From: a virus
Strand: one strand, 5' to 3'
Virus record (IMG/VR): IMGVR_UViG_3300030328_003747
Span: 32,001-96,000 of that record
DNA length: 64,000 nucleotides
The position numbers and the translations under genes were made by a program. Shown here piece after piece: positions 26,501-32,487 of the stretch. Within the stretch, counting starts at the first letter, position 1. The number at the start of each line of letters is the position of its first letter. The notes below the pieces were generated by a model. The model searched no databases, was not told the DNA's origin, and saw only the letters and a program-made list of their open reading frames with translations.

Positions 26501-26748
26501 GTGTAAGAGAAGTTTCTGAAACTGCAAGAGAAGAACTAGACAAGAATATTCAAACTTTAAATCAAAATGAAGTTGATGACGATCAATTGCAAAGCATAAT
26601 TAATCAGGCTAAAAAATCTGTTCGATCACCTTCAACCATACAACTACCTACCGTTAAACCTTTAACAACCAATCTTAATCAAGGTAGCCTATCTAATGAT
26701 CCTAGTGTTAGGGCAGCTATTTTAACTGGCGGTCAATCAATAGTATAA
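23524..26748 (+). CDS. large internal virion / ejection protein
   Basis: 1074 aa, helical, with hydrophobic Gly/Ala segments; last gene of the structural operon. Confidence 0.6.
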   Translation: MPIYNVQINPQHSVQVEADSEEEARAKVELDIKATAARRAAVPYLDEIMFDYETGVRDKSIRRRLAIADNPLEREGTAEKIFGKDGFTYNSRGQLAVTPAGLVRIGEEPDYITLTDGSKLLLNRIVDEDSFNLTDGDLADFTGIAGPVLGAVLALTPQARVLSLVSKLTKLFSNKPTRINRIIASGIGTGGGKGVEEFVELEMGLQMQSAEEIRNLLAFETTLGAGAQGIGELLGVGYHLLLGKNAPFDNLRLYRQATQGRNLDDVMKLDLKLGREATEKEINQAVKDGIIKVYAEKGLPSQGAFNKQLPGKVQSLAEQVLGNTRVEESKKYLLRSMTELFARLNKESVDGQSLTSLLKRYQGKTAMSPEQKGLLDKSVSAQLAKVKTSEVQTIQSIEKLFEDVMEDFTLMGINRSPITLGKVGEEIRDALQKAKAGVDKNLADKYRIVDLELRSLKEGVVNKQIGEQIVRPRLDNARKIIDDYVNTNYAARINIGDAVDVNSDPVAYLRAIIQRMDDGVENIGMEGGRDFTLVGLRNALSTLKEERRLTMSDSFLTKITDDVIKELQGIFDDMADPTILKRAAPNLNALETQKISRAADLLQDANLSAQKYLAPFDNAKLMKIKAEGKYGAYDPLEIYESAVLNGKTRDLRDIFQAVRNYDDYIKTTAPTGLKAVNELQLRNNLKQKLISDAFQDSFDAATDTVDFAKFTTYLKNFDRKSPGKLREIFANEALGSENFLRVLDQINKLKPNLKPAEITKLITQFTKSKVPGGLTETATGKAFLEGLKELAEAKSKTASFEGNLIIRKLPEATTEEVVSKIFTPQGASNIKLIRETVGEESFKEIQNNAMNKILQRAIDFDGITKKGDITKIFQADKFNNILRSYGDETLEAMFGKDIAIGLKNYGKTIDIMTRGEVGRGGAAGTLIAAAIAINAFNPALWPTIAGLAVLRTAFQTPFILKMMARTDKSAGVQLVEIFERMFRLYGLTEIGRGVREVSETAREELDKNIQTLNQNEVDDDQLQSIINQAKKSVRSPSTIQLPTVKPLTTNLNQGSLSNDPSVRAAILTGGQSIV

Positions 26749-28487
26749 ATATTAAGTTTTTTAGACTTACCTTTCACTTCTATACTGTCTAATCTTTTAA
26801 GAGGATTTTTTAATTTTGTGCCTAATAATTTAGCTGCTGTTGACTCTCCTATTAATAAATCAGTACCTACGGCTTTAGTTGCTGACTCTAATCTTGCTGC
26901 GGTATTTACAGAGTCTCCTATAGCAGTATAATCGAAGCGTGAATCGCTACCCATATTACCTACAACAGCTTGCCCAGAATTTAAACCGATACCAATTTCA
27001 ATACCTAACTTTGCTTCTTTTATGTCGTGTCTTATCTGAAGAGCTGTTTTTATAGCTAACTCTTCATGATTCTCTTGATCTAATGGTGCATTAAATATTG
27101 CCATCATCGCATCACCAATATACTTATCCACCATACCGCCATTTTTTTGAACAGCATTAGCTTGTATGGTTAAAGCTGCATTCATAATTTTTGCAACTTC
27201 TTTAGGTGGTAACACTTCTGATAAGGCAGTAAATCCTCTAACATCTGTAAATAAAAATGTGCAATATCTTTTTTCTCCACCTAGTTTTAATAACTCAGGA
27301 TTATCTTGCAATCTTTTAACTTGTCTAGGATCTAGATAATGCTCAAACTGTTTTTTAATTTGTTGGCGCAATTTATATTGTTTTCTAAAGTTTAGGTAGT
27401 AAGCCACACTAGCAGTAACGAATTCTGCTATTAAAGTGTAGCTAAAATCAATTAAAATGCCTCTATTTATCATATAAAGCCCTACAAGCCCCGTAGAGAC
27501 AAATATGCCACTACCTAATATGATAGACCAAAAAATACCAAGATATGAGCTTACAACCCAAATAAGAAAGACACAAAATCCTAAAATTAAGAATTCTGCA
27601 CCCAAGTGCCAATCTGGTATTCTTGGGCTGTCTTGAATTAGAATTGACTCAGATAATGCTGCTTGAATTTTGTGAGGTTCGAGTAAACCGACAGGAGTTG
27701 CAAGTGTTGGCATAATTCCAATTGCATTTACTCCAACAAATACAAACTTACCTTCAACATTCATTTCTTTTAATGTTGTTTCTGGTGTGTCTACCCAACT
27801 AATCCATTTCCTTCCTAGTGAGTCGGTAGGGACTGGTGGAATACCACGAACTGTTATTTCTGATATTCCATTTGCATTTGTTTTAATAATGTAAGTGTTA
27901 GATCCAGTTAAAGACTTTAATACTTGAGTACCAAAACTTGGCACCCAACCGTCTGGTATTTCATATAGTAGTGGTAATCTTCTTACCAAATTATCAACAT
28001 CAACTGGTGCAGATACTACACCCTCTAAAACAGATTCTCTTATACCTTTTATATTTGGTAGGTGTCCTGGCAACCTGATACCTGAAACATCTTCTCCTAA
28101 AATTACAGTACCAGTTGGAAGTGGGTATTTTTCGTTATCGTAAGAAAAGGTGGCAACTACTGTATTTGGGGATTTCTGAATTGCGAGAATATATTCTTCG
28201 TCGCCACCAAACCTGTCTTTATCAACAAAGCTTATTACCCATCCTACACCAATAGCACCATTTCTTACAAGATCTCTTTGAATTTCTGCTAACCTATCTC
28301 TAGGAAAAGGCCAACCCCCTTCTCTTTGCACATCCTCTTCTGTAATGTTTAAAATAACAAAATTACCTGTTGGTTCTTTTTTAGGGACCAAGTAATCAAA
28401 TGTTTTTAGTTTAAGTATTTCTAGTGGAGCAACCTGGAATATTAAAGGAAGCGCCAGTATAGCAAATATAAGTAAAAACTTTTTCAT
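26733..28487 (-). CDS. CHASE2-domain class III adenylate/guanylate cyclase
   Basis: GGWPFPR CHASE2 motif, TM helices, LFTDVRGFT, VDKYIGDAMM, GNMGS..RFDYTAIGDSVNTAARLE, VKGK. Confidence 0.93.
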   Translation of the reverse strand: MKKFLLIFAILALPLIFQVAPLEILKLKTFDYLVPKKEPTGNFVILNITEEDVQREGGWPFPRDRLAEIQRDLVRNGAIGVGWVISFVDKDRFGGDEEYILAIQKSPNTVVATFSYDNEKYPLPTGTVILGEDVSGIRLPGHLPNIKGIRESVLEGVVSAPVDVDNLVRRLPLLYEIPDGWVPSFGTQVLKSLTGSNTYIIKTNANGISEITVRGIPPVPTDSLGRKWISWVDTPETTLKEMNVEGKFVFVGVNAIGIMPTLATPVGLLEPHKIQAALSESILIQDSPRIPDWHLGAEFLILGFCVFLIWVVSSYLGIFWSIILGSGIFVSTGLVGLYMINRGILIDFSYTLIAEFVTASVAYYLNFRKQYKLRQQIKKQFEHYLDPRQVKRLQDNPELLKLGGEKRYCTFLFTDVRGFTALSEVLPPKEVAKIMNAALTIQANAVQKNGGMVDKYIGDAMMAIFNAPLDQENHEELAIKTALQIRHDIKEAKLGIEIGIGLNSGQAVVGNMGSDSRFDYTAIGDSVNTAARLESATKAVGTDLLIGESTAAKLLGTKLKNPLKRLDSIEVKGKSKKLNIYTID

Positions 28488-29569
28488 CCTGATCCTTGTA
28501 TAATTGTAATGTTAGACGAAGAAGCTCCATTTATCTTTACGGTTTTAGATACCCCATCTTGGATAAAGATAACCGTATAGGATTGATCTGAGTTTAATAT
28601 TAGTTGTGCGTTTTGATTTACTGTTCTCATTAGTTTAATTTGACTACCTTCTATTATAGTCGTTATATTTGTTTCTAGGTCTTGTCCTATTTGAGTACCT
28701 TCTACAACAACACCAGAAACTTGATTTAATAATTGCTCCTCATTTTCTTCATTTAATAAATCTAATACATCAAGCAGATCTTCAAAGAAATTTACATTCA
28801 AATAATCTATATCAACCTCAGAGAAATCAAGATCTTCTTCCTCTTCTAAAAGGTCTTCATCTAAGAAATCTACGTCTAGTTCATTAAAATCTAGGTAATC
28901 TTTAGCACTTTGAGTAGAATCTTCAGCAATTATAGGCTCTTCTTTGGGTGGAGAAATTATAAGCAAGTTATCTATAAACTCTAAAGTTATATCTAATTGT
29001 ACTGGAGTAGTAGGCGGTTTTTCATAAACACTAGTGGTTGTGGCTTGATAAGGTTTGTTTAATATAGCTTGTCCTAGTGCTGTTGAAACCACAATTTCAC
29101 CACTAGCATCCCCATACTCATCAGGCAAAAGTATTATTAAAGCTTCACCTATTTCATTAACGGTTACGGTAAAATCTGTACCTCTTACCGCTATTTGGCT
29201 GCTTGGGGTGTTTATTGAAAGGTTGTTTTTATTTAACTTACCACTTACGAATCTAATAGTACCACTAGCAAACTGCAAGGCCATTTTAGAGTTAGATGGA
29301 TTAGGATCATATATATATTCATCTATATATAATTGTGAATGTTCGGTTAATCTTACAACGGAATCATCAAGAAAAGTAATAGCAATACGACCAGCTCTAG
29401 TGCGAATATCATCATATGAATTAATATCAAAGTCTAGAATTGCAGGGTATGGTTCATCCCTAAGAACTTGTCCATACCCTTTTAATTCTGTTATATCGCC
29501 TATTGCATCAGCATGAAGTGGAAACACCACCATCATTTTGAACAATACACCAGCTGCTATTCGAACCAT
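28484..29569 (-). CDS. exported FecR-domain protein
   Basis: Signal peptide; D.IRT..G...ITFLDDS..RLTEHS, GTIRFVSG, TPSSQIAVRGTDF; acidic linker. Confidence 0.85.
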   Translation of the reverse strand: MVRIAAGVLFKMMVVFPLHADAIGDITELKGYGQVLRDEPYPAILDFDINSYDDIRTRAGRIAITFLDDSVVRLTEHSQLYIDEYIYDPNPSNSKMALQFASGTIRFVSGKLNKNNLSINTPSSQIAVRGTDFTVTVNEIGEALIILLPDEYGDASGEIVVSTALGQAILNKPYQATTTSVYEKPPTTPVQLDITLEFIDNLLIISPPKEEPIIAEDSTQSAKDYLDFNELDVDFLDEDLLEEEEDLDFSEVDIDYLNVNFFEDLLDVLDLLNEENEEQLLNQVSGVVVEGTQIGQDLETNITTIIEGSQIKLMRTVNQNAQLILNSDQSYTVIFIQDGVSKTVKINGASSSNITIIQGSG

Positions 29570-31857: not shown

Positions 31858-32013
31858 TTATCCTTGCCCACGATATTTTTTCCAAGACCTTTTTTTGTTT
31901 TTATTCATCCGAGAAAAACCTACATTGTTTCTCCCAATAGAAGTCTTTTTACCTCTTGCCCCTGTTACAGGTTTATGTCCTTTAGTGAACTGGTTTTTTG
32001 ATTTCTTCGGCAC
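31858..32013 (-). CDS. small basic protein (KKYRGQG type; not in ORF track)
   Basis: Manual translation MPKKSKNQFTKGHK...KRSWKKYRGQG, GTG start. Confidence 0.6.
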   Translation of the reverse strand: MPKKSKNQFTKGHKPVTGARGKKTSIGRNNVGFSRMNKNKKRSWKKYRGQG

Positions 32014-32487
32014 TTATTCTTTTGGTGTATGTGAGGCACCAAAGTAAAAACTTATAACTGCTGATGCAAGACCACCAAGATAACCTAACACTAGATTAAT
32101 TAATGCTTCTGAGTTTTGCTCTGGTGGTTGTAAAGTCACCAGGAATATATATCCCATAAAGCCACCAATAGTTATAAAGCCAAGAAATTTAGATGTCCAA
32201 TCTCCACTAAATCTTGATCTAGCATCTTGCACATCTTCTGTTTCGAGTTTAAATATATCTACATCTAACTCTTTCATTTGCACTTCAAACTCTTGCTCTG
32301 CTTTCTTGAGCTTCATCATCTGTTCTGGTGTTGCTTCTGCAACAGCCTTTTCTATTGATTTAGGATTGTTAGGGCAACCCAAAACATCGCATATAACATT
32401 ACTAGCCATACCACCTAAAGGTCCACCTAATGCTGTTCCGAGTGTTGGTGCTACTGCACCGACAATATTTTTTAATAAATTTTTCAT
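32014..32487 (-). CDS. putative holin (3TM type)
   Basis: APTLGTALGGPLGG, D..DAR, two C-terminal TMs ending VISFYFGAS. Confidence 0.7.
   Translation of the reverse strand: MKNLLKNIVGAVAPTLGTALGGPLGGMASNVICDVLGCPNNPKSIEKAVAEATPEQMMKLKKAEQEFEVQMKELDVDIFKLETEDVQDARSRFSGDWTSKFLGFITIGGFMGYIFLVTLQPPEQNSEALINLVLGYLGGLASAVISFYFGASHTPKE

Follow-up and report, generated by a model that had tools for sequence, protein, structure and literature searches.

Curli-type (type VIII) secretion genes are known from marine SAR11 phages, and the cassette described here, which lies on the minus strand between positions 26733 and 32487 of a 64,000-nucleotide (nt) stretch (the window) of a 105-kb viral record (IMGVR_UViG_3300030328_003747; G000, 1-105083), is an intact copy of this published viral module and not a new system. 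Coordinates refer to window positions unless stated otherwise. The module was described by Wittmers et al. (2022; PMC9599517) as a set consisting of a histidine kinase (sometimes two), CsgF, CsgG, CsgA/B, FecR, an optional second CsgA/B and an adenylate cyclase, which is carried by HTVC023P-type podophages and by myophages (pelagimyophages). It was found at all 65 GOV2.0 stations, represents ~0.1% of the assembled viral proteins and is one of the auxiliary gene sets most widely distributed in ocean phages; the presence of its transcripts in metatranscriptomes, reported in the same study, is the only expression evidence available for it (PMC9599517). The published viral modules contain no CsgE, CsgD is typically missing outside the Gammaproteobacteria, and FecR and the adenylate cyclase lie outside bacterial curli operons (PMC9599517). 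For the csgF and csgG genes of pelagimyophages, a role in "sibling capture" has been proposed (Zaragoza-Solas et al., 2020; PMC7029224), and for the phage Melnitz, a pore involved in lysis timing (PMC9004378). CHASE2 is not mentioned in any of these three papers.

Sensor pairs resembling a part of the cassette are known from bacteria. Operons combining FecR and a CHASE2 kinase occur in Burkholderia and Pseudomonas (PMC5192318), and in Sinorhizobium meliloti the outer-membrane β-barrel protein NsrA acts upstream of the CHASE2 cyclases CyaD1, CyaD2 and CyaK, whose product cyclic AMP (cAMP) is then passed on to Clr (PMC13001267, PMC7529298). Seen against these systems, the locus sharpens the question posed by the viral module: phages have fused a secretion module to a bacterial FecR-CHASE2 sensor pair, with FecR as a core component and the cyclase as an optional one; the published "histidine kinase" is in fact a membrane protein of small size and high conservation, and the presumed hosts are mostly devoid of the usual cAMP receptor.

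Composition of the cassette

The interval contains eight open reading frames (ORFs) in the same orientation, most of which overlap (by 20, 47, 62 and 4 nt within the cassette), in agreement with the arrangement given in a preliminary description of this DNA. Six of them are members of the cassette, listed here with the evidence for their assignment:

26733..28487, minus strand: CHASE2 receptor-type class IIIb adenylate cyclase, 584 residues (Pfam, hydropathy, catalytic residues)
28484..29569, minus strand: exported FecR/PupR-fold protein, 361 residues (Pfam FecR, AlphaFold2 model, structural match to PupR)
29508..30224, minus strand: secreted curlin-like β-solenoid repeat protein, 238 residues (signal peptide, repeats, AlphaFold2 fold)
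30228..31067, minus strand: CsgG outer-membrane lipoprotein, 279 residues (Pfam, lipobox, alignment with E. coli CsgG)
31021..31509, minus strand: CsgF with N-terminal FxFxxPxFxG motif, 162 residues (Pfam, profile match to 6L7A)
31490..31840, minus strand: p116, bitopic membrane/coiled-coil protein, 116 residues (position, substitution ratios, predicted transmembrane segment)

The gene calls and domains of the preliminary description were recovered at these positions, with Pfam matches for the cyclase, FecR, CsgG and CsgF and a marginal one to Curlin_rpt. It had also stressed the absence of csgE, csgC and csgD, and indeed none of the three was detected among the cassette ORFs by Pfam, which sets the cassette apart from E. 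coli-type curli loci. However, this is a weak argument against curli biogenesis, since CsgD is typically absent outside the Gammaproteobacteria (PMC9599517).

The gene order is identical to that of the pelagiphage module, as carried by HTVC008M and Melnitz, whose cyclases are 31-34% identical to that of the window. The novelty implied for the gene set in the preliminary description is thereby lost, as Wittmers et al. had already published the gene set together with its synteny and expression (PMC9599517). The window copy differs from the published module in that no further curlin gene separates FecR from the cyclase, in residing on a phage backbone other than the HTVC023P-type podophage and T4-like pelagimyophage ones, and in the first gene of the set, as the label "histidine kinase" does not fit p116.

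In comparison to the closest relatives, the ratio of nonsynonymous to synonymous substitution rates (dN/dS) amounts to 0.01-0.3 in every cassette gene, with dS near saturation. The case of a decaying host capture, which the preliminary description had named as one that would speak against it, is therefore refuted by the selection data, and the synteny described below likewise contradicts it. Promoter-like sites were not more frequent than expected by chance (34 observed versus 38.6 expected in shuffled sequence).

Conservation of the cassette and its bacterial counterparts

A survey of gene neighbourhoods shows that the five genes for CsgF, CsgG, the curlin-like protein, FecR and the cyclase, which had been proposed to belong together, occur in strict synteny in over 100 viral loci. 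The order p116-csgF-csgG-curlin-fecR(-cyclase) is invariant in the viral loci retrieved with either the cyclase or CsgG as bait, as well as in HTVC008M and Melnitz. Among the 43 CsgG-baited viral loci with enough downstream sequence, FecR is present in all 43 and the cyclase in 34; FecR is therefore a core component of the pore/curlin part, to which the cyclase is an optional addition. In three of these 34 loci (L140:10999-12747, L145:3157-4905 and L183:3744-5540), the cyclase gene is inverted and convergent to that of FecR, but still its immediate neighbour, so that adjacency is retained there without co-transcription.

The bacterial relatives of the cassette genes were assessed across 401 sampled Alphaproteobacteria, of which 171 encode a cyclase homologue (33-39% identity). 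A FecR-domain gene adjoins the CHASE2 cyclase in 6 of the best 20 bacterial neighbourhoods, while CsgG, CsgF, curlin and p116 are absent from all of these 20. Conversely, close homologues of CsgG are present in 7 of the 401 genomes, csgF being adjacent in all seven, and these csgG loci contain neither FecR nor the cyclase nor p116. In none of the 27 bacterial loci examined was a FecR-CHASE2 pair located next to csgFG, nor was p116 found in any of them. As the FecR-CHASE2 and csgF-csgG pairs each exist in bacteria, but never together in the loci examined, the phage cassette represents a fusion of two bacterial modules, joined by a p116 gene not found in the sampled bacterial loci. A general homologue search returned at least 7,999 marine copies, with no cellular relatives among the matches listed, and a search of genome contigs with FecR yielded only two phage-like contigs, which had been binned in metagenome-assembled genomes (MAGs).

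The pairing of FecR with CHASE2 proposed for the phage is thus genuine in bacteria, as is also evident from the LysM-FecR proteins of Burkholderia and P. aeruginosa, which are encoded beside a CHASE2 histidine kinase (PMC5192318) in the same way as a FecR-domain gene lies beside a CHASE2 receptor gene in the phage. In contrast to these bacterial pairs, the phage pair has no LysM domain and is fused to a curli secretion module. Giant proteins of 1,300-2,000 residues with a FecR-like domain adjoin some of the alphaproteobacterial CHASE2 cyclases (L103:12013-18066, L106:12184-18444 and L102:3724-7818).

Properties of the encoded proteins

The secretion part of the cassette shares its CsgG lipoprotein and the N-terminal CsgF motif with the bacterial curli systems of E. 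coli (6L7A) and of the loci of the alphaproteobacterial type, the nearest of which also exhibit the same csgF-csgG adjacency. CsgG is recognized by Pfam with an E value of 3.2e-46 (157.7 bits versus a cut-off of 20.8) and by NCBIfam with 1e-45, the latter match remaining under the equivalog cut-off. It aligns with E. coli CsgG over 213 residues including the constriction-loop segment (E 1e-40), and its lipobox is canonical (LVFSG|C) and as intact as previously claimed. CsgF is recognized by Pfam as well (4.8e-16, 59.5 bits versus a cut-off of 25.8), and the family profile retrieves E. coli CsgF (6L7A) with an E value of 6.6e-11, the segment FKFKSPSFSG aligning with FQFRNPNFGG of the E. coli protein.

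The curlin-like protein resembles the bacterial CsgA/CsgB proteins in being a secreted β-solenoid subunit built from repeats, but is only a marginal member of Curlin_rpt (22.1 bits versus a cut-off of 20.7, with no single stretch passing). It exhibits a signal-peptide-like N-terminus, a very acidic composition, about seven G-x-x-N repeats and a pair of Cys residues at the C-terminus. Its AlphaFold2 model is a β-solenoid with a predicted local distance difference test value (pLDDT) of 84 and a predicted template modelling score of 0.81. Pontibacter CsgA (8C50; Z 16.0, 22% identity) shows the highest identity to it among the tied top structural matches, and a Foldseek search of the model against the PDB gave no match at E<=0.001.

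The FecR protein is likewise very acidic and matches Pfam FecR with an E value of 2.4e-13 (50.8 bits versus a cut-off of 24). It consists of a signal-peptide-like N-terminus, a FecR-type β domain starting ~20 residues behind it (residues 22-200), an acidic disordered linker (~200-293) and a small C-terminal β domain. The FecR domain is modelled with confidence (pLDDT 83-90 across residues 22-200) and superimposes on the signalling domain of PupR (6OVK) over 138 aligned residues, with a Z score of 15.6 and a root-mean-square deviation of 2.7 Å. Thus, the protein has the periplasmic fold in common with the FecR/PupR anti-sigma regulators of cell-surface signalling, but contains neither a transmembrane segment, as judged by hydropathy, nor a cytoplasmic anti-sigma domain, and has the acidic linker and the small β domain instead. 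This β domain shows no sequence match and, in a low-confidence model, only generic matches to single-layer β-sheets (Z 5-7), so a curlin-like identity is not supported for it; an apparent match to the "anchoring domain" of 5IX9 maps to the FecR domain itself (residues 20-113).

The adenylate cyclase of the published module is a CHASE2 receptor in this phage, and the CHASE2 domain is an addition to the published description. The protein matches the Pfam families CHASE2 (2.7e-26, 93.1 bits versus a cut-off of 26.3, residues 10-308) and Guanylate_cyc (2e-19), and hydropathy together with the Pfam matches indicates a transmembrane segment (1-27), a periplasmic CHASE2 domain (~28-295), a cluster of transmembrane segments (~293-346) and the catalytic domain (408-583), which matches solved adenylate cyclases with an E value of 4e-31. 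As stated in the preliminary description, the catalytic residues are retained (D415, K455, D459, T521, N528 and R532). They form the complete set expected of class III (IIIb) enzymes, namely two metal-binding Asp, the substrate-binding Lys and Thr/Ser, and the transition-state Asn and Arg, and are invariant or nearly so in 81 relatives, except for position 521, which is either T or S. The dN/dS values of the gene are 0.17-0.26. From these residues, cAMP would be the expected product. Matches of the cyclase to PycC as a defence system in PADLOC are explained by the shared class III cyclase fold, and the other cassette proteins did not match any defence model there. Class III cyclases were detected in 2 of 41 genomes of the SAR11 family, one of them probably on a phage-like contig. 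The latter (L119, G006:C1:1-20000) is a 23-kb contig from a Pelagibacter MAG bin, which carries a phage-type cassette (two p116 copies, CsgG, FecR and cyclase) and is itself probably of phage origin.

The p116 protein is the counterpart of what Wittmers et al. called a histidine kinase ("sometimes two"), and it belongs to the cassette: wherever a viral locus extends far enough, csgF is immediately preceded by one or two copies of the p116 gene. It is also the most constrained gene of the cassette (dN/dS 0.013-0.08). The published label is not supported, since the protein has only 116 residues and no HisKA or HATPase match; its sole His residue (H66) is not conserved and lies in a segment that is deleted in short paralogues. 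The sequence starts with a transmembrane segment containing a G-x-P motif, followed by a coiled coil. This architecture recalls small lysis proteins, although the corresponding leads from the ESM Atlas score only 0.86-0.88, and p116 matches neither a Pfam entry nor a holin family.

Possible functions of the cassette

Taken together, we consider it reasonably probable that the cassette is a curli-type export module with an obligatory periplasmic FecR-fold partner, which in most variants is coupled to a CHASE2 cyclase as regulatory read-out. In the first module (csgF-csgG and the curlin-like gene), the host would provide Sec export and lipoprotein sorting, and CsgG would form an outer-membrane channel together with CsgF, through which the acidic curlin-like β-solenoid may pass and assemble into a fibre or coat at the surface of the infected cell. 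The second module comprises the periplasmic FecR/PupR-fold protein and the adenylate cyclase with its CHASE2 receptor domain, which together make up a sensor pair encoded by neighbouring genes in Alphaproteobacteria as well. The FecR-fold protein may serve the pore/curlin part as adaptor, gate or monitor, whereas the cyclase, where present, most likely senses the periplasmic state via CHASE2 and responds by producing cAMP. The strongly conserved p116 is probably an essential inner-membrane coiled-coil part of the cassette.

Several observations weigh against this interpretation. The surface fibres are only inferred, cells infected with Melnitz did not clump (Buchholz et al., PMC9004378), and membership of the secreted subunit in the curlins is marginal by sequence, as Curlin_rpt matches only 6 of 35 family members and the family profile does not reach CsgA when compared with the sequences of the PDB. 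In addition, the catalytic domain of the cyclase also matches Pycsar cyclase models. As for possible targets of cAMP, cyclic nucleotide monophosphate (cNMP)-binding domains are absent from the phage record, and those of the CRP type are present in only 2 of the 41 SAR11-family genomes. A host CRP as target, as suggested in the preliminary description, is therefore doubtful if the phage carrying the window copy infects a SAR11-like host.

The preliminary description had combined the five genes into a trans-envelope sensor, in which the CsgG/CsgF pore with a curlin antenna would signal through FecR to the CHASE2 cyclase, and cAMP would then tune host CRP regulation or lysis timing. The FecR-CHASE2 half of this relay is plausible and has a precedent in S. 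meliloti, where NsrA acts upstream of CHASE2 cyclases and cAMP acts on Clr (PMC13001267, PMC7529298); it also accords with the FecR genes adjoining CHASE2 cyclase genes in bacteria, with the retained adjacency of inverted cyclase genes, and with the FecR fold being of the type that docks periplasmic domains of outer-membrane proteins (6OVK). The complete relay nevertheless appears unlikely: p116-csgF-csgG-curlin-fecR is retained without the cyclase in 9 of the 43 loci, all of which contain FecR, so that relaying to the cyclase cannot be the sole role of FecR. Unlike in S. meliloti, a cognate receptor of the CRP/Clr type was not found in the phage record or in most of the SAR11-family genomes, and a connection to lysis timing is countered by the position of the cassette, which does not lie with any recognized lysis genes, and by there being no match to a holin or endolysin family near it. 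A bolder variant, to which we assign a low probability, holds that the FecR-fold protein replaces CsgE at the periplasmic mouth of CsgG and at the same time is the ligand of CHASE2, so that the phage would read pore occupancy or entry as cAMP in a host without a cAMP system of its own. If true, this would constitute a second-messenger channel private to the phage, the receptor of which would be an unrecognized protein of the phage or the host, and p116 might act as a partner in the membrane.

A role of CsgG, with or without CsgF, as a mere channel raising outer-membrane permeability, either for lysis timing in the manner of a pinholin or secretin or for the uptake of nutrients or cofactors, with the other genes as accessories, has been put forward for Melnitz and the pelagimyophages (PMC9004378, PMC7029224). 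The lack of a CsgE gate in the cassette and the likeness of p116 to small lysis proteins would fit such a role, but CsgF has kept an N-terminal motif alignable with its E. coli counterpart, and both the curlin-like subunit and FecR, for which a bare pore would have no use, are universally retained under purifying selection. Moreover, a pinholin depolarizes the inner membrane, which CsgG, being located in the outer membrane, cannot do. We hence regard the bare channel as improbable. The chance that the cassette is a non-functional passenger, either recently captured from a host and decaying or created by chimeric assembly, is very slight. While the 105-kb record probably joins two phage genomes, the putative junctions are far from the cassette, hundreds of independent viral contigs share its gene order, and both copies of the cassette in the record are intact, with dN/dS well below 1 in all genes and invariant catalytic residues.

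Flanking genes and structure of the viral record

Two further genes of the interval lie upstream of p116 and were assigned as follows:

31858..32013, minus strand: p51, small highly basic ORF, 51 residues, flanking insertion (composition, positions in relatives)
32014..32487, minus strand: p157, membrane protein, 157 residues, frequent flanking gene (hydropathy, variable position)

The preliminary description had taken p157 for a holin and p116 for a holin-like protein, and had linked the cassette to lysis genes on this basis. Transmembrane segments are present in both proteins, p157 having a Gly-rich N-terminus and two C-terminal transmembrane segments by hydropathy, but neither matches a holin family. 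p157 has no Pfam match and corresponds to phrog_1544, a family of "unknown function". PF11351 (GTA_holin_3TM) has no match in the record at E<=1, the sole PHROG holin match spans 21 residues with an E value of 0.002, and a weak lead for p157 from the ESM Atlas consists of a rank-10 cluster in which 11% of the members carry GTA_holin_3TM. The gene is found upstream of the cassette here and downstream of the cyclase in most relatives, and its neighbours are nucleases, not lysins. Since neither a holin family match near the cassette nor an endolysin match among the ORFs scanned in the phage was obtained, the link to lysis is unsupported; the cassette is located at the distal end of a leftward block of replication genes.

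The small basic ORF p51 (17 K+R, 0 D+E) is a real gene, as proposed, but not a member of the cassette. Only this phage carries it between p157 and p116, relatives having a spacer of 7-60 nt at this site, and homologues are found at other positions and in another orientation in L189, L169 and L083, those of L189 (78% identity) and L169 (72%) being encoded on the opposite strand. From this placement, p51 behaves like a small mobile gene.

A second complete, but diverged cassette is present in the record outside the window (L085; G000 1117-6626). It has the opposite orientation and the order p116, CsgF, CsgG, curlin-like protein, FecR, CHASE2 cyclase and then p157, and its proteins are 46-66% identical to those of the window cassette. 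The record also contains two unrelated packaging/head gene sets, both represented in the window by the genes for the large terminase subunit (TerL), portal and capsid:

Set A (backbone A): TerL at 6102, portal at 7686, capsid at 10846
Set B (backbone B): TerL at 51406, portal at 53047, capsid at 58405

Relatives carry either terminase type, but never both, and a 171-bp direct repeat (1272-1441 and 43807-43977, 86.5% identity) flanks a unit of 42.5 kb (~1272-43977). Most likely, the 105-kb record thus arose from two phage genomes, each with its own cassette, through chimeric or concatenated assembly, and the putative junctions coincide with the two copies of the repeat.

Backbone B, which carries the second cassette, is of the HTVC023P type. 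The TerL of backbone A is 36% identical to that of Roseobacter phage CRP-7 and its portal 30-33% to those of HMO-2011-type podophages; overall, the identity of its TerL, capsid and portal to proteins of CRP-7, Rhizobium-phage and HMO-2011-type phages is no more than 30-40%. Backbone A, a distant relative of these phages at most, is neither HTVC023P-type nor T4-like, and the window copy therefore extends the known distribution of the module to another backbone.

Two genes close to the cassettes differ much less between the backbones than the cassette genes themselves do, namely those of p157 (32014-32487 versus L085:6150-6626; 95% amino acid identity) and of a DUF7936 protein (19134-19472 versus L085:750-1088; 92%). 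The contrast between these values and the 46-66% identity of the cassette proteins indicates that sequences bordering the cassettes may recently have been exchanged or converted. Together with the further backbone, the near-identical flanking genes in two co-assembled phages support the view that unrelated marine phages exchange the cassette as one unit. At the end of the record, the final 89 bp (G000 104995-105083) are 98.9% identical to positions 16670-16758 inside the tail-fibre gene of backbone A, a repeat at which the assembly may have stopped or gone astray.

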